Below, piece by piece: positions 1-25,670 of a DNA stretch of 32,447 nucleotides (the stretch's first letter is position 1; the number at the start of each line of letters is the position of its first letter). The notes beneath the pieces are model-generated. The model was given only the letters and a program-made list of their open reading frames with translations, was not told the origin of the DNA and ran no database searches. Origin of the DNA: a virus. Taxonomy: Duplodnaviria > Heunggongvirae > Uroviricota > Caudoviricetes. Where the stretch lies: IMG/VR virus record IMGVR_UViG_2585427783_000005; one strand, written 5' to 3'. Made by a program: the position numbers and the translations under genes.

Positions 1-452
1 AACACCAGCAAACAGATAAAAAAGGGCCAGCCAATTGGCCAGCCCTTCTTAACAGGATGTCGCTTAAGCGAAATCTTAGTTAAGACGCTCCCAATAAAAC
101 CACATAAAAAACATATAATTATAATAAAAACAATTAGTTAATTTAATTTTTAATGCAGTGAATTGCAATATTCTGCAACCTCCGCCGCCACTTTGCCGCC
201 ACTTAAAGCTTTATACCACACAGACTTTAGTATACCCGAGTGAAACGCTAACACATGAGGTAGTTGGAAAATTTCCGTATATGTTGTAATATTGATACGC
301 ATTATATGATTTTTACCTGATATAATGTAATTATTAGCTTCAAAATTATTTTTGCACGAATCAGGTATTACCAAGTAGTTGTCAGTTTTTAAAAACCCAA
401 CATCCTAAAATTAGCATTGTTTTTTAACCACAAAACATCCACGGAGAAGAAC

Positions 453-1262
453 GTGTCAAAAAAGGATACAATCCAGATTATCGATATCAGGATGCAGAGA
501 CCAATCATAGCAAGAATAGAAGAAGAAAATTTAAATTTGACATTGCAAATGTCAGATAAAGCCACATTATCTGGTGCGACAGTTAGTTTTTTCACCCCAA
601 ATAACGTTTCTATATTCTTATCCTCAGCAAAAAAAGAGCTCTCAAAATCCAATTCTATATATAAAAGTCTTTTTGGAAAAATACACAAAACCAAACATAA
701 AAACTTTAAAATTTCCGACAAAGCCCTGCCGAGACTCTATAATTACTTTGAATCAATTCAGACGGCCATTATTTCTATGTATACTGCAATTGAGTCTTTT
801 GCAAATATATGCATACCACATGATTATGTTTATGAAAAAAACAATGCCAAGGGAATCAAAGAATCCTATAGCAAAGAGCTAATTGAGCGATATATACCAA
901 CAAGTGAAAAAATAGATAAAATCCTACCGTCTATTTTAAATTGTGATTCACCTAAAGGTTCAAAACTATGGCAAGATTTTAAAAGCCTTGAGTCACTTAG
1001 AAATGACATAATTCACCCCAAGACAACAAAGAAAAACACAGAAACAAAAGAAGACTCATCTTTTTTATGCATTTTACTATCAGATGACTTTATAAAAAAA
1101 GTTTCCTGTGGATTTGATTTGGTATCTTATTTTTGCAAACAAGACACTACTCATAGTCTTTTCCCAATGGGTTTCGGTGAAATTGAACTTAAACCTGTCC
1201 CAATTAAAGCCGGTGACTTTGAAAAAGTTGATGATCATGATGAAATAGAATTACCATCATAA
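453..1262 (+). CDS. AT-rich hypothetical protein with Rx4H (HEPN-like) motif; possible Abi-type cargo gene
   Basis: Long ORF (track 417..1262, TTG at 417); GTG at 453 has GGAG 9 nt upstream. Lys/Asn-rich, much lower GC than the prophage backbone. Motif LESLRNDIIHP. Start codon uncertain (ATG 492 also possible). Confidence 0.5.
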   Translation: MSKKDTIQIIDIRMQRPIIARIEEENLNLTLQMSDKATLSGATVSFFTPNNVSIFLSSAKKELSKSNSIYKSLFGKIHKTKHKNFKISDKALPRLYNYFESIQTAIISMYTAIESFANICIPHDYVYEKNNAKGIKESYSKELIERYIPTSEKIDKILPSILNCDSPKGSKLWQDFKSLESLRNDIIHPKTTKKNTETKEDSSFLCILLSDDFIKKVSCGFDLVSYFCKQDTTHSLFPMGFGEIELKPVPIKAGDFEKVDDHDEIELPS

Positions 1263-2441: not shown

Positions 2442-2780
2442 TTATTCCCAAAGTGCTGTTGCAGCATCCATTACAGGATCCAAAGGAATTTTTACGCCTG
2501 CATACTCCGGGCTATCTTTCCAAACAGTATCAATATTGCTCCCCTCAAGCTTTCCAGACTTTACTCCATCAATCGCAAAACCATTTAATGGGTATCGGTC
2601 ATCTGTTGCTTTGTCGTACACAAAGGCATATTTACCGTTGACACAAGACACCGTAGCTTTTTCAAAAGTTAACGGCCAATCCTCACCAAACTTAGCGCCA
2701 TCTAAATCCTGTGTTTTTTCAGCGGCTGAGGCTCCAAAAGAAAGGGTAAGAAGCAGAGCTAAAAAGAGTTTACATTTCAT
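2442..2780 (-). CDS. Small secreted/periplasmic protein of unknown function, inserted between cI and int
   Basis: ATG at 2778-2780 (revcomp) with AAGGGA RBS; N-terminus MKCKLFLALLLTLSFGASAAEKT is a typical Sec signal peptide; mature part ~90 aa. Track ORF 2442..2852 has a longer, unlikely N-terminus. Confidence 0.7.
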   Translation of the reverse strand: MKCKLFLALLLTLSFGASAAEKTQDLDGAKFGEDWPLTFEKATVSCVNGKYAFVYDKATDDRYPLNGFAIDGVKSGKLEGSNIDTVWKDSPEYAGVKIPLDPVMDAATALWE

Positions 2781-2788
2781 AATGTCCC

Positions 2789-3649
2789 TTACACGTGTTT
2801 TTCCAATGTGAAAACTACAGCCCCGGCAGGAGTAATGTCTGTAATGTTGCATTCAAACTCAGCAGACTTATTTGACAACCTGACTTTTCCACCGGGCAAG
2901 CGAATTACATCAAAAACATCAAGAGCGCCGTCGATATCAATTAACCAGCGACCATTACTTATATTCGAAGCAGAACAGTCGACAAGCCAAGAGGCAGCTA
3001 CACCGTCAACAAAAATCAATTCCCCTGAGTTAGAAGGAATCATTGAGGGGTCAGGATGCCACGTTCCTGCATCCTTAAGCTCACCAGATTCAAGACGAGA
3101 TTTTTTAATAGAAAAACCAGATGTGACATCTTCCCTGTTAGCTCGCATTTGCCCCTTGCCTGTTGCTAACCATTCCAGTGACGTATCGGTATCAAGAGCG
3201 CATGTAACAACAACATCACCAGGGAAAAAATCTCGCCTTACCCATGTGCTAATTGTGCCAGAGGAAATGCCGAGCAAATCACCGAGCTCCTTTTGCATGG
3301 TAAAGCCATACGCATCAAGAATCCTACGCAAAACGGTTTTACCACCATTCGTCATAATCTCGTCATAAAGCTCTTTGCCTTTTAACTTGCAACTGGCTCG
3401 CTCGTGATTTGCATTTGCAAGTTCTCCATTTACAAGCCAATTGATATCAGCTCCCGTGTCAAGACAACACCTAACTATGACATTGCCAGGTATTGCATCA
3501 CGCTGAACCCAGCCGCTAACGCTGTGTTTAGCGATACCTAGCAGGTCAGCCAAATCCTTTTGCATCTTGACCCCATAGGCTGACATTAAGCGTTCCAATA
3601 CGCCGTTCGTTGCACTAACACGCCACTGAACATCAAGCTCAGAACTCAT
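2789..3649 (-). CDS. cI: CI-type immunity repressor (186-like) with tandemly duplicated N-terminal HTH domain
   Basis: 286 aa. Two homologous modules (VLERLMSAYGVKMQKDLADLLGIAKHSVSGWVQRDAIPGNVIVRCCLDTGADINWLVNGE / VLRRILDAYGFTMQKELGDLLGISSGTISTWVRRDFFPGDVVVTCALDTDTSLEWLATGK), then a C-terminal domain resembling the 186 CI oligomerisation domain. Divergent from the early operon. Confidence 0.85.
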   Translation of the reverse strand: MSSELDVQWRVSATNGVLERLMSAYGVKMQKDLADLLGIAKHSVSGWVQRDAIPGNVIVRCCLDTGADINWLVNGELANANHERASCKLKGKELYDEIMTNGGKTVLRRILDAYGFTMQKELGDLLGISSGTISTWVRRDFFPGDVVVTCALDTDTSLEWLATGKGQMRANREDVTSGFSIKKSRLESGELKDAGTWHPDPSMIPSNSGELIFVDGVAASWLVDCSASNISNGRWLIDIDGALDVFDVIRLPGGKVRLSNKSAEFECNITDITPAGAVVFTLEKHV

Positions 3650-5711: not shown

Positions 5712-7934
5712 TTGGCTGTTCAATTCGCTTATCCGTGGAACGTCCCACGGTCGGCAATCTCCAGCCCATACCTTACTTATGAGCAACAGCATCGCCGCGA
5801 CCGTATGTTCGCGGCTTTGCTGCATGCAAAAAAGGTGCTTTCTCTCCAGCCCGACTGCGTGCGGTTAGATGTTTATCGCACTGCTGCGGTGCTGGAACAA
5901 AATCAGGGTAGTCAACGAGCCAATGCATTTTTAATCAGCTTCTGCAAAAAGGCATTGCCGCGTCTTGAACTGGTCGCAAAAAAATACGAATGCGCTGGTA
6001 TCAACAGCAAGGTATCAACCGCTGTTTTTGGAAGTCATTTTGATACTCAGCAAATGCAATATCTGTCGTCACGCATGGTTAATATGGTCGCCCGATATAA
6101 CCGTCTCCCGGACATGTCGCGCGCTGATGTTGACCTGTTGGCCGCTGATATTGCTAATTTCATTCGTGGTGAACTTGCCAACATTAATGACCACGGATTC
6201 AGCGAGCTTAAAACGCTGTACACCTGGTATATTCGTGCTGGCTTTATTTCCCTCCAATTCAACGTTATCCCACCACATTGGGAGCGGGTTGAAAAAAAAT
6301 ATGTCGGTGCGGATGAAATCGCACCGGCTATCGCCAAAATGTTTAACGATGGGTGGTGGCGCGGTCGTTTGCGCCGTGTAGCAGCTACGTGGCGCGAACA
6401 CCTGCAAATTGCAGTCGGCAACGTCAGTAAGAAAAAAAACACTTACGCGAGTAAAAACTGCGTGACTGACTGGCGTGAACAAAAGCGCCGCACTCGTGAA
6501 TTTCTCAAAGGTCTGGATCTCGAAGACGAAGACGGCAACCGTATCAGCCTAATTGAAAAATATGATGGCTCAGTTGCTAACCCTGCGATTCGCCGCTGTG
6601 AGCTCATGACCCGCATTCGTGGGTTTGAAAACATCTGTAATGAGCTCGGTTATGTCGGTGAGTTTTACACTCTAACCGCGCCGTCAAAATATCACGCCAC
6701 GACTAAAGCCGGTTACCGTAACAGCAAATGGAGCGGTGCCAGCCCGGCTGACACGCAAAACTATCTAACCGGTATCTGGGCGCGTATCCGTGCCAAACTA
6801 CATCGGGAAGATGTCCGTATTTTCGGTATTCGTGTCGCCGAGCCCCATCACGACGGCACTCCACACTGGCACATGCTGATGTTCATGCTGCCGGAAGATG
6901 TTGAATATGTTCGCTCCATCGTCCGTAAATACGCATGGAAAGAAGACCGCCACGAACTGAAAAGCGATAAATCCCAAAAAGCACGTTTCCACGCGGAGTC
7001 CATTGACCCGGAGAAAGGCAGCGCAACCGGCTATGTTGCTAAATACATTTCAAAAAATATCGACGGTTATGCTCTCGATGGTGAAACCGATGATGAAAGC
7101 GGTGAGCTGCTGAAAGAGACAGCCCCCGCCGTTTCAGCATGGGCTGCGCGCTGGCACATCCGTCAGTTTCAGTTTATTGGTGGTGCGCCGGTGACGGTTT
7201 ACCGTGAGTTGCGTCGCCTCGCTGATACCGAAACCGCGCACGGTCTGAGCGTTGAGTTTGCCGCCGTCCATGATGCCGCCGACGCTGGTGACTGGGCTGG
7301 TTATGTTAATGCTCAGGGTGGGCCGTTTGTCCGTCGCGATGATTTACAGGTGCGCACACTGTATGAACCGCGTACCGAGCTTAATCAGTACGGTGAGGAA
7401 ACGGTATGTATTAAGGGGGTCTACGATTCCTCCATAGGTGCAGGAAGCCCGATTTTAACCCGGCTCACTCAGTGGAAGATTGTTCCGAAGCGTGCTGTTG
7501 ATTTGGCCGTTGACCTTCAGGACGGCAAAGCCGTCCCTCGGAGTTCTGTCAATAACTGTACGGGAAGCGAAAGCGATCCACCGATACTGGATTTAACAAA
7601 ACCACTGAGTCGGCGTGAAAGACGAGAATTGACCAACCGACTCAGGAAGCAAAAGCCAGCAGCACGGCGAAAATTCATCCACGGAACGGATGAGCAAAAC
7701 GCAGCTATAGCTAAAACTATCGATGAGATACATCTGACAACCGGCATTAATATCAGCCGGGGCGAAGCCCTGCACCTGATGGCCGGTGGTAAAAGTTGTT
7801 TTGATGGTAAATGGCTACGCGGAACGGCCAAAGGAGAAATATTTTCCGCAGCACCATCGCATGAGGCTAAAGCTCGGAAAATCCTTAATCGTGTTGCGGC
7901 GATGGCTGAAGCATCAAAACCAATACATGAGTAA
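5712..7934 (+). CDS. A: Rolling-circle replication initiator (P2 gpA family)
   Basis: 740 aa; HHDGTPHWHML and GYVAKYISKNIDGYALDG motifs; apparent TTG start at 5712 after a GGGGG RBS giving MAVQFAYPWNVPR, which resembles the P2 A N-terminus. Confidence 0.9.
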   Translation: MAVQFAYPWNVPRSAISSPYLTYEQQHRRDRMFAALLHAKKVLSLQPDCVRLDVYRTAAVLEQNQGSQRANAFLISFCKKALPRLELVAKKYECAGINSKVSTAVFGSHFDTQQMQYLSSRMVNMVARYNRLPDMSRADVDLLAADIANFIRGELANINDHGFSELKTLYTWYIRAGFISLQFNVIPPHWERVEKKYVGADEIAPAIAKMFNDGWWRGRLRRVAATWREHLQIAVGNVSKKKNTYASKNCVTDWREQKRRTREFLKGLDLEDEDGNRISLIEKYDGSVANPAIRRCELMTRIRGFENICNELGYVGEFYTLTAPSKYHATTKAGYRNSKWSGASPADTQNYLTGIWARIRAKLHREDVRIFGIRVAEPHHDGTPHWHMLMFMLPEDVEYVRSIVRKYAWKEDRHELKSDKSQKARFHAESIDPEKGSATGYVAKYISKNIDGYALDGETDDESGELLKETAPAVSAWAARWHIRQFQFIGGAPVTVYRELRRLADTETAHGLSVEFAAVHDAADAGDWAGYVNAQGGPFVRRDDLQVRTLYEPRTELNQYGEETVCIKGVYDSSIGAGSPILTRLTQWKIVPKRAVDLAVDLQDGKAVPRSSVNNCTGSESDPPILDLTKPLSRRERRELTNRLRKQKPAARRKFIHGTDEQNAAIAKTIDEIHLTTGINISRGEALHLMAGGKSCFDGKWLRGTAKGEIFSAAPSHEAKARKILNRVAAMAEASKPIHE

Positions 7935-8008
7935 TTCATATCCATATCATGCACATACAGCAATCGCTCTATTCGTTTTTTTTCTTCCCATCTTTTGCCA
8001 ATACGTGC

Positions 8009-8028
8009 TACTGTATAAATATACAGTA
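8009..8028 (+). promoter_or_regulatory. LexA (SOS) box overlapping a promoter upstream of the small-ORF/DinI-like operon
   Basis: TACTGTATAAATATACAGTA: CTGT-N8-ACAG, near-perfect palindrome matching the E. coli LexA consensus; TTGCCA -35-like hexamer at 7995-8000. Confidence 0.8.
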
Positions 8029-8047
8029 ACCCTGTGGGAGGGATTTC

Positions 8048-8230
8048 ATGGTTGGCGAACATTTCAGCCGAACGCAGCAAAAGTGGGCTTGTGTGCAATT
8101 TATTGCCGAGGTATCTCTGATTGCAAACTGCAAGCCATCAGACTTAAAGCTCGCGCTCACTCTCATTGCAGACCTAGCAAACAGCGAGAATAACGAAACC
8201 GAAGATGATAATTTTTATAAGGCTGATTAG
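8048..8230 (+). CDS. Small hypothetical protein, first gene of the putative LexA-controlled operon
   Basis: ATG 8048 with GGGAGGG RBS; 60 aa; acidic C-terminus. Confidence 0.55.
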   Translation: MVGEHFSRTQQKWACVQFIAEVSLIANCKPSDLKLALTLIADLANSENNETEDDNFYKAD

Positions 8231-8233
8231 ATT

Positions 8234-8467
8234 ATGAGAATCAATATCACGTTGGATAAAGAGCAAAAAATTAGTCAGGCAACATTGGATGCACTTGAGG
8301 CTGAACTGTACCGCAATCTTCAACCTATTTACCCAAAGACTGCTATCCGAATTCGCAAGGGCTCCGCTAATGGCGTTGAACTAAGCGGTTTGAAACTGGA
8401 CGAAGATAAAAAACGAGTAATGGAAATCATGCAGCAGGTATGGGAGGACGATAGCTGGCTGCATTAA
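8234..8467 (+). CDS. DinI/Tum-family protein (candidate SOS-induced antirepressor or RecA modulator)
   Basis: 77 aa; MRINITLDKEQKISQATLDALEAELYRNLQPIYP ... EIMQQVWEDDSWLH resembles DinI in length and conserved N- and C-terminal segments; downstream of the LexA box. Confidence 0.75.
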   Translation: MRINITLDKEQKISQATLDALEAELYRNLQPIYPKTAIRIRKGSANGVELSGLKLDEDKKRVMEIMQQVWEDDSWLH

Positions 8468-8469
8468 CA

Positions 8470-8541
8470 AACGCCGCCGGTGCTGAAACTTGCTTTCAGT
8501 GCTGGCGGGGTTGAACAACTCGCACCGCGAGGCGCTAGTTC
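8470..8541 (+). repeat. Copy 1 of ~72-bp direct repeat with internal stem-loop, 3 nt after the DinI-like stop
   Basis: AACGCCGCCGGTGCTGAAACTTGCTTTCAGTGCTGGCGGGGTTGAACAAC...GCGAGGCG; ~85% identical to copy 2. Confidence 0.8.
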
Positions 8542-8662
8542 TTCCTCTCAAAGTTTCTCGATGTTTTATTGGTTACACACCAGTGATGAATGGGACGTTA
8601 CCTTAGCGGGTTTTATAGTGGCGCTGTGGCAGCGCTAAATAAAATTCATTGAGGGCGATAAT

Positions 8663-8872
8663 ATGCATCGACTACCGGGCGAAATTCCGCAGCACAAAAC
8701 TAAAAGCATCAAACTGATGGCCATCGTTCATCGTCTGCAGCAGATAATGGTCAATGAGAATTTGACACCCGCCGAGCTGGTCGGGTGTGCCGAAATAGTC
8801 AGGGATAATTACGGCAAGCTGGATAGCATCAGCAAGCCGACACATTACTCACCGCCACCACGTCGACCATAG
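8663..8872 (+). CDS. Hypothetical small protein between the two repeat copies
   Basis: ATG 8663 with GAGGG RBS 7 nt upstream; 69 aa. Confidence 0.55.
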   Translation: MHRLPGEIPQHKTKSIKLMAIVHRLQQIMVNENLTPAELVGCAEIVRDNYGKLDSISKPTHYSPPPRRP

Positions 8873-8874
8873 AT

Positions 8875-8946
8875 AACGCCGCCGGAGCTGAAACTCGCTT
8901 TCAGGTCTGGCGGGGTTGAACAACGAGCTACGCGAGGCGTTAGCCG
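8875..8946 (+). repeat. Copy 2 of ~72-bp direct repeat with internal stem-loop, 3 nt after the 69-aa ORF stop
   Basis: AACGCCGCCGGAGCTGAAACTCGCTTTCAGGTCTGGCGGGGTTGAACAAC...GCGAGGCG; stem preserved by compensatory changes relative to copy 1. Confidence 0.8.
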
Positions 8947-9005
8947 GTCATAGCGTCGCAAATACTTCAACCGTCTGCTGGTTAAATAATTCGAGGTTTT
9001 TGGAC

Positions 9006-9200
9006 ATGCAAAATCCCCTTTCATCGAAAAATGACCCGTTTGCCGATTGGGCAAAGAATCTGACTTTAATGGCTTTAAATAACGACCTGAGCTCTCGCGA
9101 GGTGGAAAGCTACACCGCAAAAATGGTCGGGCAGGCCGGTAAAGATGAGCTATCAGTCGTTATCAAACACCTGTTAAATCACATCAGAATGCGCAAATAA
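9006..9200 (+). CDS. Hypothetical small protein
   Basis: ATG 9006 with GAGG 9 nt upstream; 64 aa (track ORF 8916..9200 starts at a TTG inside repeat copy 2). Confidence 0.4.
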   Translation: MQNPLSSKNDPFADWAKNLTLMALNNDLSSREVESYTAKMVGQAGKDELSVVIKHLLNHIRMRK

Positions 9201-9216
9201 GAGGAACTATATAAAT

Positions 9217-9318
9217 ATGTTATCTCTCGTTTATGAAAATCCGTGGACGACGATTTTTCTGATGATTGTTGCCAGCATGTGCCTCAACAGTGTTATTGGC
9301 GCATTGCGCGGCCATTAA
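9217..9318 (+). CDS. Small hydrophobic peptide (33 aa, single predicted TM helix)
   Basis: ATG 9217 with AAGAGGAA RBS 10 nt upstream; MLSLVYENPWTTIFLMIVASMCLNSVIGALRGH; followed by a strong terminator. Below the ORF-track size cutoff. Confidence 0.45.
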   Translation: MLSLVYENPWTTIFLMIVASMCLNSVIGALRGH

Positions 9319-9336
9319 TCGCGACAAAACCAGACT

Positions 9337-9367
9337 AAAACCGGCACCCTGAATGCCGGTTTTTTTA
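9337..9367 (+). terminator. Rho-independent terminator ending the post-A accessory operon
   Basis: AAAACCGGCA-ccctgaa-TGCCGGTTTT followed by a T-run (TTTTTTTAT). Confidence 0.8.
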
Positions 9368-9526
9368 TGCCATTTTTCCGCGAATTTCCCGTTTTTTAGT
9401 CGTGCATGCATCAGGTGCATGGTTTTGCATGCGTCAGTCTTGCCCGTTCTGTCCGTGCGCCGCCAGAGCTAGCGCGGATCCAGAGTTGTCATGCAACTGC
9501 ATTAAAACCGCCCCATAAAGCGGGCA

Positions 9527-9545
9527 GGCGTGGCGGGGAAAGCAT
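9527..9545. other. cos site (cohesive-end sequence, P2/186 type)
   Basis: GGCGTGGCGGGGAAAGCAT in a ~400-bp GC-rich non-coding interval between the early/accessory region and portal gene Q, where cos lies in P2-family prophages; resembles the P2 19-nt cohesive end as I recall it. Confidence 0.65.
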
Positions 9546-9764
9546 TGCGCGCCAGCAGTGATGCGTAATAATAAAAATTATCCTCTGAGCGCGTCGTGAT
9601 GGCGCTGTCGTGGTCGCTGCTGGTTCGTTGGTGGTCGAGTGTGTTCGTGCGCGTGAGACGCATCTGATGCGTGATGGTGGTGTGCATGGAAAAGCCACCA
9701 GGAGCAGCGGCTTTACAGGAGTGGCAGGATTCAAACTGCTAATTATGTTTCTACTATGATTAAA

Positions 9765-10769
9765 CTAATTTACATGTATGTAGAGTTCACCGTCGCCAGA
9801 CCAATCGGGACACTCTAAAACAAGCCCAAACTGCTTGAATATTTCATCAATGATTATTGTTATCTCCCGAAAATCACCAAAACCTGTAATGTGCTGGTCA
9901 TTAAACTTCCCATAAAGATTCTGAAAAGCAATGCCTAATTCTGATAATTGATATCTTATCTTTGAGTTGGATAGTGTAAGGGATAGCTTTGGATCGTATT
10001 CTTTAATATTGATGTTTAGAGAATGGACATAACCCATCGCATAAGCATAAGAGTTGATGATTAGCCTGATACGTTTTTTTACTTCAAGATACATGTCATT
10101 CAGAGAAATATTACCGTACTTATAACCCCAGATGAGTTTTTCAATCTCGTCAGATACTTCATTTACAACAGTGTCAAGATTCTCTAAAAATAAATCGACA
10201 GTTTCTTGAGGGGCAGACCCCGAAGACATGTAATTAGCGAGATATTCAGACCATGCACGCGTGGCTGAGATAAGAAGCGCGCTACCATACTCGTTGACTG
10301 TAAAGTTTTGGGCTAAGCATGTTAGTAAGTTTTTTTCATGTACGTGCACTAATTCATGGTGAATGCGATGGATGACTGCGAGGTATCCTTCTTCTTTCAG
10401 TTTTAAGAAGCTACCATCATTGAAAAGCTCAACAAAAAAATCAATCGATAGCACAAGGGTATATTCTTCATATAGCCCATCATTGCCAATTTTTGTTACT
10501 AACTGCCCGACGGCTGCGCCCTGTTTGCTATTGGTAAATGAACTAGGGGATTTGTGTTGGTAAGAGGATGTTACCTTTTGAAGAGCTTCACTGAAGTTAT
10601 AGGAAACAATCACGCATTTTAATTTGGAGATATCAAGATTGAGATTCTTTGTTAAAGCTCGGATAGCTTCTAGTGTGAAATTACCGATATTATTTGCTTC
10701 TTGCTCAGTAGCGAAACCTTCGAGGGTTATTTTAAAATCAGTTTCCAAAATATTAATCTCCGCGCCCAT
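9765..10769 (-). CDS. AT-rich hypothetical protein with HExxH motif (possible metal-dependent hydrolase); accessory gene between cos and Q
   Basis: 334 aa ORF, ATG at 10767-10769 (revcomp); IHRIHHELVHVHE motif; strongly AT-rich relative to flanking phage genes; no recognisable P2 homolog. Confidence 0.6.
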   Translation of the reverse strand: MGAEINILETDFKITLEGFATEQEANNIGNFTLEAIRALTKNLNLDISKLKCVIVSYNFSEALQKVTSSYQHKSPSSFTNSKQGAAVGQLVTKIGNDGLYEEYTLVLSIDFFVELFNDGSFLKLKEEGYLAVIHRIHHELVHVHEKNLLTCLAQNFTVNEYGSALLISATRAWSEYLANYMSSGSAPQETVDLFLENLDTVVNEVSDEIEKLIWGYKYGNISLNDMYLEVKKRIRLIINSYAYAMGYVHSLNINIKEYDPKLSLTLSNSKIRYQLSELGIAFQNLYGKFNDQHITGFGDFREITIIIDEIFKQFGLVLECPDWSGDGELYIHVN

Positions 10770-10846
10770 TGTTTTGATATTCGATGCACTATAGCTTTCG
10801 CAGATTGCATCTTCAATAATGAGCGCAGAGATTGTGGCGGCCTAAG

Positions 10847-11893
10847 TTATTCTGGGTTGTCGAGGGTGTACTCTTTGAATCTGATGACCTCCATGCCGAG
10901 CCAGTCATTTACCTCCCTGAACCTGTCCTGTAGCGGCGACAGCTCGTTGCGCACAAATACCTTTGCCACCTTCTCAACATCACCGAGTGAACCGATATTC
11001 TCGGGCTTGCCGCCCATGAGCTGGAACGGTACGCGGTGCGCGTCCATCAGATCGGCGGCACTGGCCTTCTTGATGTTGAAAAAGTCATCCTTTGTGGCGA
11101 CCTCGCTCAGTGGCACGATTTTGATGCCGTCCGGTTTTCCGCCGGGAGCGTAGAAAAACAGGTTCTTAAAGTTGCCGAGCCCTTTTGAGTTGCGCATCGC
11201 CTCGCGCAGCGATTCGACGTCGGTCGCGCTCTGCGCCGGGTCAGTCACATACATGATGTAGCCTGCGTGCGCGCCGTTCTGATAATACTTGCGGCGGAAC
11301 AGCGTCGCGGATTCATTCAGCCAAGCGGAATTAAGCGCGCTGAGATATTCCGGCAGACCGTAAATCTCCTGATTAATGTCGGGCTCCAGCAGGTGAAACA
11401 CGGTATCAGGCGCGAACTCGTGCGGCTGGGTGAAGTTTTCCACAAACCAGAAAATCGAATCGTCGACTCCGCGTCGGGTGTATTTGGCTGGCGAGGCCAG
11501 CAGTTTGATTAACTGGCCGGTGACGCTGTGGCGCTGCTCAAGAAAGGCGTTACCGAACACCAGATAATCGAGCGCAAAGCGGCTGAAATCCTGACGGGAT
11601 AACAACGGGTGCGGAATGTAGGTGCTCGCGAGCACGTTACGCTTAACATAAATTGGCGAGCTGTGATGCACGGCAGAGCGCAGGCTCTTTGCCAGCCCTG
11701 AGAAGCTGACCGGCGGCTCGTACCATTTGCCGTTACTGATGCACTCGACGTAATCCAGAATGTCGCGCTTATCGAGTACCGGCACCGGCTCGCCGAAGGT
11801 GAACGCTGTCGTTTTTGGCGGTGCGCTGGCGGTCAGTTGTTGTGGTTTGCTGGCCTTTTGTGCGTTGGCTTTACGGGATTTTTGTTTACCCAT
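10847..11893 (-). CDS. Q: Portal protein
   Basis: 348 aa; size, position and orientation (adjacent to and downstream of terminase P) match P2 gpQ. Confidence 0.9.
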   Translation of the reverse strand: MGKQKSRKANAQKASKPQQLTASAPPKTTAFTFGEPVPVLDKRDILDYVECISNGKWYEPPVSFSGLAKSLRSAVHHSSPIYVKRNVLASTYIPHPLLSRQDFSRFALDYLVFGNAFLEQRHSVTGQLIKLLASPAKYTRRGVDDSIFWFVENFTQPHEFAPDTVFHLLEPDINQEIYGLPEYLSALNSAWLNESATLFRRKYYQNGAHAGYIMYVTDPAQSATDVESLREAMRNSKGLGNFKNLFFYAPGGKPDGIKIVPLSEVATKDDFFNIKKASAADLMDAHRVPFQLMGGKPENIGSLGDVEKVAKVFVRNELSPLQDRFREVNDWLGMEVIRFKEYTLDNPE

Positions 11894-19718: not shown

Positions 19719-20594
19719 CTAGCCTCGTAAATATCGTTTAGTAAATTTCGTGTTTGGTCTGGATGATAGGATTTGTCTTTCTATTTCACTATCACAGTCT
19801 ATATAGTCTAGTGTATTAGCTTCTATAAGTTTGTTCACGTCAATATTTTTTGCATCGATTATGTTGGCATTTCTAAGGTTTGCATTGGTGTATTCCACTT
19901 TATCCAAATCACACTCTCTGAGTACGCAACTTTTCATTTCCGCATTGGAAAAATCCCCACCATATAAATAGCAGCCTTCAAAAATAACACCGTTTAACTT
20001 TGAATCCTGAGCTTTAATATTTTTTATTTTACACTTTATAAATTTTACGTTTTTCATTTTGCTCTTGCTAATATTTAATGCCTGGATTGTACATCCAGTG
20101 AAAGAACAGTCTCTTATGTTAGATTTTTCCATATTTAACCCAGATAGTTCTGAGGTTTTAAAGTGTAAGTATTTAATGGTAAAAAGGTCACCCAACTCCA
20201 TTCTGGGTATGTCTATATTGAAGACACCTTTATTGTTGAGCTGTCTTATTATTTTTATTTTTTGTATTTTCAAATCAACATTAACGTGCTTAGCTAAGTT
20301 TCCCAAATCCTCAAGAAGTTCATTAATCGTTTCTTTGTTTTGTCTTCTGTATTCAAAGTAATAAAGGATGACACCTAATACAAAAAAATCCAAAATGGAT
20401 GAATTTGCATTTATTAGGAACCCAGACAGGAATGAATCATTGTAATTACCATAGTGTATAGAGGCAAGTGTTACGCCAAATGCATATAAAATAAAAATAA
20501 TAAACACGTGCTTCATTTTGCATAAGGATTGTATTATTGGTTTTATGGCATCAATTTTGTTCATTGCTGCAGCAGCGAAAGATTTAAAAGTCAT
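19719..20594 (-). CDS. Membrane-anchored pentapeptide-repeat protein (moron between S and V, antisense to late genes)
   Basis: 291 aa; two N-terminal hydrophobic helices (VFIIFILYAFGVTLASI, ILDFFVLGVILYYF); C-terminal five-residue periodicity (SNIRD CSFTG CTIQA LNISK ... ANLRN ANIID); strongly AT-rich. Start codon uncertain (no clear RBS). Confidence 0.7.
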   Translation of the reverse strand: MTFKSFAAAAMNKIDAIKPIIQSLCKMKHVFIIFILYAFGVTLASIHYGNYNDSFLSGFLINANSSILDFFVLGVILYYFEYRRQNKETINELLEDLGNLAKHVNVDLKIQKIKIIRQLNNKGVFNIDIPRMELGDLFTIKYLHFKTSELSGLNMEKSNIRDCSFTGCTIQALNISKSKMKNVKFIKCKIKNIKAQDSKLNGVIFEGCYLYGGDFSNAEMKSCVLRECDLDKVEYTNANLRNANIIDAKNIDVNKLIEANTLDYIDCDSEIERQILSSRPNTKFTKRYLRG

Positions 20595-24158: not shown

Positions 24159-24599
24159 ATGAATCGTTTTGTGTTCAGTCCATCTGAGTCCCGTTTTTAT
24201 GCCATCGAGTGGCAGGCTGATTATGTTGATAATAATTGTTGGCCACATGATGCCATTAACGTTAGTGACAGCATTTATTATGAGTTTTCCGGCACTCCCC
24301 CTACAGGTAAGCAACTTATAACTTTAAATAACATGCCAGCATGGGGTGATATTCCTCCACCTACACGAGAAGAATTAATTGTCGCTGCTGATGTGGAGAA
24401 GCAAAAAAGAATAGATTTAGCCAATGATTACATGAACGGTAAGCAATGGCCTGGTAAAGCAGCTATTGGTCGTCTGAAAGGTGAGGAACTGGCACAATAT
24501 AATTTGTGGCTGGATTATCTGGACGCACTGGAGCTGGTCGATACCGCCAGTGCGCCAGATATTGAATGGCCTACGCCTCCGGCAGTTCAGGCCAGATGA
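24159..24599 (+). CDS. G: Tail fibre assembly chaperone (expressed orientation)
   Basis: 146 aa; C-terminus ...SAPDIEWPTPP typical of the tail-fibre-assembly family. Confidence 0.85.
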   Translation: MNRFVFSPSESRFYAIEWQADYVDNNCWPHDAINVSDSIYYEFSGTPPTGKQLITLNNMPAWGDIPPPTREELIVAADVEKQKRIDLANDYMNGKQWPGKAAIGRLKGEELAQYNLWLDYLDALELVDTASAPDIEWPTPPAVQAR

Positions 24600-25173
24600 C
24601 ATCCGGCGCGGTGCTGGTATCTGTTGCCGTCACCGCGTCAATGTAATCCAGCACAGTGTTAAGGCTGGTTGTTTCTGCCTGCGTCAGTTTACGTCCGGCC
24701 TGCAATTTCAGCTGAATCAGACTGATTGAAGCCATTGCAGTATCAATCAGTGACTGGCGCTGTGCTTCTGCTGCATCTACTGCGGCGCTATGCTGTGCTT
24801 CGGTATCCGTCACCCATTTCTCACCATCCCATTTATCGTATGGCGTTAACGGGGCGATAGTGGTTGTATTATCAGGGTAATCACCCGGAGCTGTGATTTC
24901 TTTTGATTCTCCTGTTTCGGTGCTAAAGACGATTTCACCGCGATGGTCTGGCACATATTCCCATGAGTTAAAATCTACAGATCGGCAGATTGCATAACCA
25001 GCTTTGTATGTGCCAGGGGCATCTAAACAGGAATATGCAGGGATACCGACACCAACGGCAAGATATTCAGTTGATGTGGAAATATATTCCCGTGTTTCGC
25101 CATCATAGTTATAGACGGTAATATCCCCCGCCTTTGTAGCAATAAACTCGCTATTTAATACAGCGTTATCCAT
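24571..25173 (-). CDS. Alternative tail fibre assembly chaperone (inverted orientation)
   Basis: 200 aa on minus strand; C-terminus ...TAPDVIWPELPEA, paralogous to G; 3' ends of the two chaperone genes overlap convergently. Confidence 0.8.
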   Translation of the reverse strand: MDNAVLNSEFIATKAGDITVYNYDGETREYISTSTEYLAVGVGIPAYSCLDAPGTYKAGYAICRSVDFNSWEYVPDHRGEIVFSTETGESKEITAPGDYPDNTTTIAPLTPYDKWDGEKWVTDTEAQHSAAVDAAEAQRQSLIDTAMASISLIQLKLQAGRKLTQAETTSLNTVLDYIDAVTATDTSTAPDVIWPELPEA

Positions 25174-25670
25174 TATGCAGCCCTCACGATATAGTTAAAT
25201 GCAATATTCCGTGGACGGGTTTCATTTATCCCATATGCTGTTGTTCTCTGATTCCCGACAAAATATCCATTTGGATTAGAAGATACAGAATAATCATCAA
25301 AATCAAGTGGGCTATCAGCACCCGGCGTCAGGCTTGCAATATATCCTCTTCCCATAACTTCTGATGCTGGTATTTCTTTTGTACGATAATCACTAACTCT
25401 GAAGAGCTGCCCTTGGTGGGTGTGTGATTCCACTCCTCCATTCTGAAGACTTAGCAAGGCACGTACAGCATCAATACCACGCCCGTCATCCCAGCCACGA
25501 ATAAACTCACCACGTAAATCAGGCAATTTATTTGTCGGATAAGCCTTTGCCAGTTCCGGATATTCTTCAGCAGAAAAAGCGGCACCGTTGCATTTCAGCC
25601 AGCCTGTTGGCGGAGTGGCTGAAGGCCACGGAACAGGCACCCCAACCGGTAATGCAGAGCCTTCTCCCAA
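25173..25670 (-). CDS. Alternative tail-fibre C-terminal (receptor-binding) segment; promoterless, used only after inversion
   Basis: Minus-strand ORF without ATG start that begins at the right crossover site; LPDLRGEFIRGW and NETRPRNIAFNYIV tail-collar-like motifs. Confidence 0.7.
   Translation of the reverse strand: MGEGSALPVGVPVPWPSATPPTGWLKCNGAAFSAEEYPELAKAYPTNKLPDLRGEFIRGWDDGRGIDAVRALLSLQNGGVESHTHQGQLFRVSDYRTKEIPASEVMGRGYIASLTPGADSPLDFDDYSVSSNPNGYFVGNQRTTAYGINETRPRNIAFNYIVRAA

Follow-up and report, generated by a model that had tools for sequence, protein, structure and literature searches.

The 32,447-nt viral record IMGVR_UViG_2585427783_000005 (this whole stretch is called the window below) contains a 186/P2-family prophage of Escherichia coli, integrated beside yfiB and with a region 100% identical to strain JKHS016. 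The sole gene between its cohesive-end site, cos, and its portal gene Q is an AT-rich open reading frame (ORF) on the minus strand at 9765-10769, whose product, judging by predicted fold and by conservation, is very probably an active zinc metallopeptidase of the HExxH...E kind, related to clan MA(E) at the fold level. We propose that this product is a zinc peptidase with a gluzincin core, carried as cargo in the P2 defense hotspot and serving as a one-protein proteolytic defense; we give this reading as a whole a probability of about 0.5. The protein family is a new and unnamed one of a known kind of enzyme, in a known kind of locus. The gene and the segments that bear on its activity are as follows.

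9765-10769, minus strand: orphan metallopeptidase-like ORF, 334 amino acids (aa) from the ATG at 10769, with its stop codon at 9765-9767
10335-10361, minus strand: codons H137-H-E-L-V-H-V-H-E145, the active-site helix motif, inside predicted helix 126-148
10233-10253, minus strand: codons W173-S-E-Y-L-A-N179, the proposed 'glutamate helix', with E175 as candidate third zinc ligand, inside predicted helix 160-185
9765-10214, minus strand: C-terminal helical region, residues 186-334, of which residues 251-334 are the most variable in the protein

A preliminary description of the window, made from its letters, had singled out an HELVH motif in this protein, and comparison across the family shows the motif to be meaningful. 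The product contains IHRIHHELVHVHE, and HExxH occurs in it once, at residue 138, against 0.02 occurrences expected for this composition. Across an alignment of 75 family members, some as little as 17-25% identical, four columns alone never vary, namely H138, E139, H142 and E175; both histidines and the glutamate of the helix-borne HExxH, as in gluzincins, are thus kept in 75 of 75. W173 is retained in 69 of these members and A178 in 73, and among 32 close relatives both HHELxHxxE and WSEYxAN are invariant. Position 145 is acidic in the family (D in 57, E in 13 of the 75) and is an alternative candidate metal ligand to E175. Further along, G246 is kept in 74 of the 75, G315 in at least 90%, Y216 in 62 and Y243 in 60. 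Y216, Y243 and G246 all lie in the C-terminal lobe and are candidate distal catalytic or structural residues; by analogy, Y216 or Y243 could be akin to the distal Tyr/His that stabilizes the transition state in M1/M4 enzymes. Column entropy is lowest in the catalytic core (1.07 bits, the most conserved part of the protein) versus 1.7-1.9 bits in the C-terminal helical region.

Given the family alignment, AlphaFold2 returned a confident model (predicted local distance difference test score, pLDDT, 90.3; predicted template modeling score, pTM, 0.89). Four strands and two helices make up its N-terminal lobe, after which come the long helices 126-148 and 160-185 and a helical C-terminal lobe. HExxH is predicted to lie mid-helix and E175, which follows H142 by 33 residues, in the helix after it; the two lobes, an N-terminal one with a beta-sheet and a helical C-terminal one, give the model a thermolysin-like fold. 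The fold hits of the product are M1/M4/M9-like. The best Foldseek match among viral structures (BFVD) is annotated 'Peptidase' (probability 1.0, E 0.016), and the weak matches in PDB, to YbeY, M61 and Wss1, are zincins. We rest the peptidase assignment on fold and motif because profile alignments to PepN and to the E. coli protease Lit cover the motif helix only. The product is acidic, its maximum 19-residue Kyte-Doolittle mean is 1.19, and we found neither a transmembrane segment nor a signal peptide in it; it is therefore expected to be cytoplasmic. A membrane or secreted protein was considered and rejected on the lack of a hydrophobic segment and a signal peptide.

Searches of named families agree that the sequence family is new. 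The product has no match in Pfam (none to Peptidase_M78 even at E up to 10), none in NCBIfam, and none among PDB sequences in single-sequence searches or in two profile searches that included the broader profile. Over all 75 family members Pfam returned only two marginal Peptidase_Mx1 matches, at E 0.0025. We thus found no membership in any named peptidase family across Pfam, NCBIfam and PDB sequences. The remote-homology search and structure prediction that the preliminary description had proposed as checks end in a confident zincin-like model with no family name attached to it.

The family itself is large. An identical protein is recorded in E. coli, and the product has an end-to-end match (E 2.5e-157) to PHROG 11743, a group of 'unknown function'. 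An indexed search returned 78 clusters, all 'hypothetical', down to 42% identity, from Escherichia, Salmonella, Citrobacter, Klebsiella, Pectobacterium, Serratia, Enterobacter, Yersinia, Kosakonia, Shewanella and Psychromonas. An exhaustive profile search of 1.84 billion representatives returned 354 proteins, 125 of them at E <=1e-10; nearly all are 300-340 aa long and match end to end. Each of the 354 stands for a cluster at 50% identity, and their taxonomic range runs from Enterobacterales to Firmicutes. Relatives at 40-50% identity come from marine Psychromonas, Colwellia, Shewanella, Pseudoalteromonas and Vibrio and from the bee-gut bacterium Gilliamella, and others are found on soil Firmicute plasmids. 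Related loci were sought with the narrower alignment, as the broad one had no conserved block.

Compared with the gluzincins M1, M4 (thermolysin), M9 (collagenase), M30 and M36, the product has no sequence-level membership in any. Its spacing from HExxH to the candidate ligand Glu is 33 residues. It is a compact single domain of 327-334 aa with its own C-terminal helical bundle, cytoplasmic, and lacks a pro-peptide, a signal peptide, accessory domains and the M1 GxMEN exopeptidase motif.

The surroundings of the gene are those of the P2 defense hotspot, which is bounded in the window by the following features.

5712-7934, plus strand: replication gene A (ORF list and annotation)
9527-9545, plus strand: cos cohesive-end sequence of 186 type, an exact match to GGCGTGGCGGGGAAAGCAT with 0 expected by chance, which defines the hotspot
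10847-11893, minus strand: portal gene Q, conserved flank of the hotspot, codirectional with the cargo gene

We recognize GGCGTGGCGGGGAAAGCAT at 9527-9545 as what we take to be the cohesive end of phage 186. The prophage also carries CI, CII, Fil, replication endonuclease A and portal, terminase, capsid and tail genes. From cos to the stop codon of the cargo gene, an arrangement shared by 15 related loci, is 220 bp, from the stop codon of portal Q to the cargo gene a 77-bp gap, and the CI/CII immunity region lies about 6 kb from it. The preliminary description had placed a 334-aa ORF between cos and portal Q, which is exact, and had taken the interval for the hotspot that carries old and tin in P2. 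That identification is documented: the gpA-cos-gpQ interval is a P2 defense hotspot, with old and tin in P2 itself, surveyed by Rousset et al. 2022 in 18,150 loci with 1,650 gene arrangements; of eight further hotspot systems that they cloned, three proved active, which favors a defense role for such cargo (PMC9122126). Our gene, between gpA and gpQ and next to cos, occupies this position, and like old, tin and the other hotspot systems it is swappable, AT-rich accessory cargo in the same slot; Old itself is an ATPase-TOPRIM nuclease, unrelated to our product. The ORF has a GC fraction of 0.376, and 0.364 at third codon positions; the corresponding values for portal Q are 0.555 and 0.705, and overall GC is 0.571 in the terminase gene and 0.513 in the window, so the strong AT-richness that had been noticed against the backbone is real.

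On the A-to-cos side (7934-9527, the position of tin in P2) we found a DinI-family gene at 8234-8467 and three tiny ORFs without a family match. Because that side holds only these, the 9765-10769 gene is essentially the whole cargo of the hotspot. The NCBI annotation pipeline PGAP also calls a 61-aa 'hypothetical protein' at 9502-9687 (minus strand) that overlaps the cos cleavage site at 9527-9545; this ORF is probably not a real gene, as it would be split in linear virion DNA.

The coding start and the signals upstream of it are listed here.

10746-10748, minus strand: TTG at codon 8, the likelier start, for a product of 327 aa (PGAP annotation, 984 nt)
10758-10761, minus strand: GGAG, Shine-Dalgarno-like, 9 nt upstream of the TTG start, read from the sequence
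10788-10816, minus strand: sigma-70 promoter-like site TTGAAG-17-TATAGT, a consensus match within the 77-bp gap next to Q

The length of 334 aa counted from the ATG is thus refined: the true start is likely the TTG at 10748, which gives 327 aa. We prefer it because PGAP calls it, because the GGAG stands 9 nt before it, because most homologs begin M-E-x-D-L at the column of the TTG start, 7 codons downstream of the ATG, and because residues 1-7 appear disordered, being the only part of the AlphaFold2 model with pLDDT <50. From the sequence, the gene is probably expressed in the lysogen from a promoter of its own, with the limit that promoter-like sites across the scanned region numbered five against 3.5 expected, so that the match at 10788-10816 is weak evidence. 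We found no terminator-like site between the Q stop codon and the gene, and since nothing of that kind separates them, read-through from the late P/Q transcript is also possible.

The gene is rare and variably present. Of 5,426 complete E. coli genomes, 26 have it, each with one chromosomal copy, whereas the cos and portal sequence on either side has a match in 253 genomes. Among 50,697 phage records a single one contains it. Its carriers include many human or avian isolates as well as E. coli from wastewater, river and seawater. We rejected a conserved structural or housekeeping role in P2 phages on the basis of these counts (1/50,697 phage records, 26/5,426 E. coli genomes); the homology to such a protein that the preliminary description had named as fatal to its proposal did not appear, and the gene is rare and variable instead. 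In all 16 further enterobacterial loci retrieved, the gene lies between portal Q and a 186-type cos. Two distant P2-like phages, with portal proteins only 33-35% and terminases 38-40% identical to ours, have a homolog of 51-56% identity in the same slot.

Selection and exchange have both left marks on the gene. Its ratio of nonsynonymous to synonymous divergence (dN/dS) is 0.23 versus 0.05 for the portal gene, which means purifying though relaxed selection and indicates a functional protein; no positive selection was seen at the whole-gene level (omega 0.23). Intact copies make up 25 of the 26 in complete E. coli genomes. In pairwise comparisons the cargo often has a much lower synonymous divergence (dS) than the portal gene beside it, as in one pair with 0.079 vs 0.422, and in several pairs this indicates recent swapping. 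In other pairs the cargo is more diverged than the portal, with protein identities of 87-91% vs 96-99%. Cargo and portal dS are decoupled both ways (comparisons with loci L006, L019, L024 and L026); one pair has 0.34 vs 0.31, with protein identities of 88% vs 99%. Mismatch in both directions means that the cargo has been exchanged between phage backbones, and the decoupling of dS puts a recombination breakpoint within the 77 bp that separate Q from the gene.

The gene is already catalogued, though to our knowledge without annotation. In Table S5B of Rousset et al. it is P2-hotspot system #76, a single protein differing by one residue, with a blank Pfam field and 51 occurrences (PMC9122126). 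Those 51 are among 18,150 loci, and the system is absent from their tables of tested systems (PMC9122126). In five defense-discovery papers and their supplements, queried with the PHROG id, motif strings and accession, that catalog entry was the only find: the supplements of Vassallo et al. 2022, DefensePredictor 2026 and a 2026 integron-cassette screen yielded nothing on the protein, and neither did the text of a 2025 metagenomic selection paper and a 2026 NAR study of P2/P4 hotspots. Identity with the 'Peptidase + TM' system that Rousset et al. did test (pFR104) was considered and rejected, since protein 1 of pFR104 is an unrelated M78-like protein of 160 aa with the motif HELAHH.

Outside P2-type phages, homologs are lone genes in mobile or defense-rich surroundings, and in about 20 contexts examined we found no conserved partner gene. 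The Colwellia homolog adjoins a TIR protein (PycTIR/PDC-S35-like) and lies 5 kb from a Shedu SduA gene (E 1e-152). That of Psychromonas aquimarina adjoins DUF1848 and SbcB, accessory genes of a defense-associated reverse transcriptase (DRT) system; that of Vibrio sits between a TPR-GreAB-C-PIN system and a PDC-S32 candidate; and that of Psychromonas marina is in an island with a type I restriction-modification system and a helicase. The Gilliamella, Kosakonia and Sphingomonas homologs are within or at the edge of other prophages, the homolog on a Pseudomonas megaplasmid adjoins an integrase, and the one on a Paenibacillus plasmid, preceded by a helix-turn-helix (HTH) gene, is 5.5 kb from a Pycsar system. 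On chromosome 2 of Pseudoalteromonas phenolica (locus L011, 3500-16700), a 48%-identical homolog forms a single-gene cassette in an integron-like array with at least 11 attC-like repeats (TAACAA...GCGTTAG) in 15 kb, of which the copies at 9891-9981 and about 11390-11500 bracket it. Integron cassettes are reported to be rich in phage-defense genes (bioRxiv 10.1101/2024.07.02.601719; PMC12614218).

More distant members, of about 21% identity, adjoin operons of the cyclic-oligonucleotide-based antiphage signaling system (CBASS) in two metagenomic contigs (L034, 5247-8020; L035, 2202-8035). The CBASS neighbors are, in one case, a CD-NTase with Cap15 and, in the other, a patatin with a DncV-like CD-NTase and Cap15-PNP. 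A P2-like prophage has the L034 member at its cargo end, with a DNA methylase gene next in line. The adjacency to CBASS may be simple co-residence in an island or a functional link. Taken qualitatively, the family recurs within about 7 kb of known defense genes in separate lineages.

Three points support the standing of the gene as a single-gene candidate defense: it belongs to no named family, it has no conserved partner, and it repeatedly lies next to defense systems. The preliminary description had called it a strong candidate of this kind and an uncharacterized one; the candidacy stands on these points, and its novelty is reduced to that of a gene listed earlier, unannotated, as system #76. 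Going by sequence and context, we lean narrowly toward a function in defense against phages or other mobile elements.

The closest known system in design is Lit (Peptidase_U49) of the E. coli e14 prophage, likewise a single prophage gene of about 300 aa for an HExxH zinc metalloprotease without a partner. Lit lies dormant until the Gol peptide of the major capsid protein of T4 switches it on, and it then cleaves an essential host factor, elongation factor Tu (EF-Tu) (PMC9712102). The two proteins share an H-H-E-[LI]-x-H-V core, while the element and the insertion site are different. Homology with Lit was tried and rejected: the hhalign probability is 16% over 19 columns, which are those of the motif helix, BLASTP gives E=15, and the product has no match to PF10463.

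We infer a mechanism in which zinc binding, peptidase activity, expression in the lysogen, an anti-phage effect, a trigger and a substrate would each have a place. A soluble cytoplasmic enzyme would be made in the lysogen from its own promoter. Zinc would be bound by H138 and H142 of the active-site helix and by E175 of the next helix, with E139 as the general base and a conserved tyrosine (Y216 or Y243) perhaps stabilizing the transition state. In the sub-model that we prefer, a phage product made upon infection would trigger the enzyme, which would then cleave an essential host factor in Lit-like abortive infection. In the alternative sub-model the enzyme would cleave a phage protein directly. 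The faster-evolving C-terminal helical region would be the recognition surface. We favor the Lit-like logic because a protease without a partner must stay harmless until infection and because the C-terminal helical region is the most variable; the abortive mode specifically, which we argue by analogy, is nonetheless a tentative and rather doubtful part of the proposal.

Several observations weigh against the proposal of a one-protein proteolytic defense. No PADLOC-DB v2.0.0 family matches the product at E up to 10, and a search of the defense-discovery literature found no published functional test of the gene. At the sequence level, membership in M1 was rejected by profile, with only the motif helix aligning to PepN, and the comparison with the Lit profile likewise covers only that helix. 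At the structural level, Foldseek gave no match reaching E 0.001 in PDB or BFVD. No mechanism that would keep a constitutive, partner-less protease harmless is visible in the sequence. The neighborhood evidence is anecdotal, drawn from about 20 contexts as raw counts without background correction, and it includes non-defense contexts, namely a PutA/PP-loop neighborhood (L015) and a copper/mercury-resistance transposon (L036). Finally, damaged copies exist. The copy at L023 (10001-11005) is frameshifted with six in-frame stops, that of strain TW10598 (NZ_CP035846.1, 3928887-3929890) is split into two coding sequences, and fragments of 106-113 aa are found on about 58 contigs, with PHROGs 28537 and 30021 corresponding to the two halves of the gene. 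Such damage could reflect a fitness cost or ordinary decay.

The alternative that survives best, and which we still regard as improbable, is that the protein is a zincin fold without proteolytic activity (serving in binding or in some other hydrolysis) or a decaying selfish hitch-hiker in a recombination hotspot. YbeY, a ribonuclease with a zincin-like fold that is not a peptidase, is among the weaker fold matches. The truncated and frameshifted copies fit a passenger, as does the fact that, when Rousset et al. cloned eight additional P2-hotspot systems, three were active and five inactive on the phage panel used (PMC9122126). Against this explanation, the four catalytic or ligand residues are invariant at about 20% identity, dN/dS is 0.23, 25 of 26 copies are intact, and different mobile elements have captured the gene repeatedly and independently.

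Somewhat less probable again is a counter-defense or pro-phage protease, an enzyme that would serve the prophage, and not protect the cell from other phages, by breaking down an immune protein of the host or of a rival, or some host factor, while the prophage is being induced or an infection is under way. Late genes P and Q immediately precede the gene on its strand and no terminator-like site was found after Q, so that lytic co-expression is possible, and the two distant relatives beside CBASS operons would suit such a role. Anti-defense genes also occur in variable regions of phages, as is generally known and noted in PMC9122126. Relatives in non-phage chromosomal defense islands and in integron arrays, however, speak against it, since there an anti-defense protein would harm systems of the host. 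The P2 cos-proximal hotspot has moreover yielded defense systems so far (PMC9122126), and the promoter-like site of the gene's own suggests expression in the lysogen.

A regulatory protease of the ImmA/IrrE or CapP type, which would cleave a repressor under stress and so control induction or an adjacent immune operon, is quite unlikely. Such Peptidase_M78 enzymes resemble our product as HExxH metallopeptidases of prophages, P2 hotspots and CBASS surroundings; the ImmA/CapP type is common in prophages and beside CBASS (bioRxiv 10.1101/2022.04.27.489752). Two distant relatives do adjoin CBASS, and the Paenibacillus copy follows an HTH gene. Unlike these enzymes, our product has no M78 match at E up to 10 and no HTH or transmembrane partner gene, and its fold hits are M1/M4/M9-like rather than ImmA-like. 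No adjacent HTH partner was seen in the window or at most loci, the neighbors here being portal and cos, and the integron cassette holds a single gene with no partner.

An HExxH prophage cargo of about 330 aa is superficially NleC-like. Even so, a lysogenic-conversion or virulence factor, that is, a zinc protease acting on proteins of the host animal through a secretion system in the manner of the type III effectors NleC and NleD, is very improbable, for all that the cargo is AT-rich and many carriers are human or avian, given the lack of a Pfam effector-peptidase match and of a signal peptide, relatives in free-living marine bacteria, the bee gut and soil Firmicute plasmids, environmental E. 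coli carriers, and the slot in a defense hotspot.

Other parts of the window also look like accessory positions. At 19719-20594 (minus strand) is a gene for a 291-aa pentapeptide-repeat protein (Pentapeptide_4, E 3.9e-19), with a GC fraction of 0.316. It is inserted antisense, with tail/virion-morphogenesis genes on one side and baseplate gene V on the other, and has the look of a further AT-rich cargo slot, the second in this prophage. Pentapeptide proteins are present in the P4-hotspot table of Rousset et al. too (PMC9122126). Between chromosomal yfiB and the prophage integrase, a 281-aa ORF at 417-1262 (plus strand; GC fraction 0.32) has no Pfam match and is possibly further cargo at the attachment-site end. 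A DUF2511 gene at 2442-2852 (minus strand), between integrase and CI repressor, marks another accessory position. At 24571-25670 (minus strand), two ORFs, one for tail-fiber assembly (Caudo_TAP) and one with a collar domain, are encoded on the opposite strand to the tail-fiber operon, an arrangement that resembles an alternative tail fiber or an invertible segment.

Proteolysis is a rare effector mode among characterized anti-phage systems, with Lit as the decades-old classic example in a single gene. It is conceivable, if somewhat less than evenly so, that the 9765-10769 product is the founding member of a widespread group of stand-alone immune metallopeptidases, in which one protein of about 37 kDa would be both sensor and, through zinc-dependent proteolysis, executor, a second and evolutionarily independent 'Lit-type' mechanism in the form of a one-gene module that moves among P2 hotspots, integron cassettes, plasmids and defense islands. 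If the proposal is true, a compact peptidase without a partner would make it easy to study how one protein links phage sensing to proteolysis, and a function would be given to an orphan family (PHROG 11743 and its relatives) and to an unannotated entry in the P2-hotspot catalog. With the four putative catalytic residues already located, the prediction lends itself to direct testing, and we see in the gene a clearly delimited candidate that is easy to test, not something surprising in principle. Even without a defense phenotype, it would represent a new gluzincin-fold sequence family on mobile elements.

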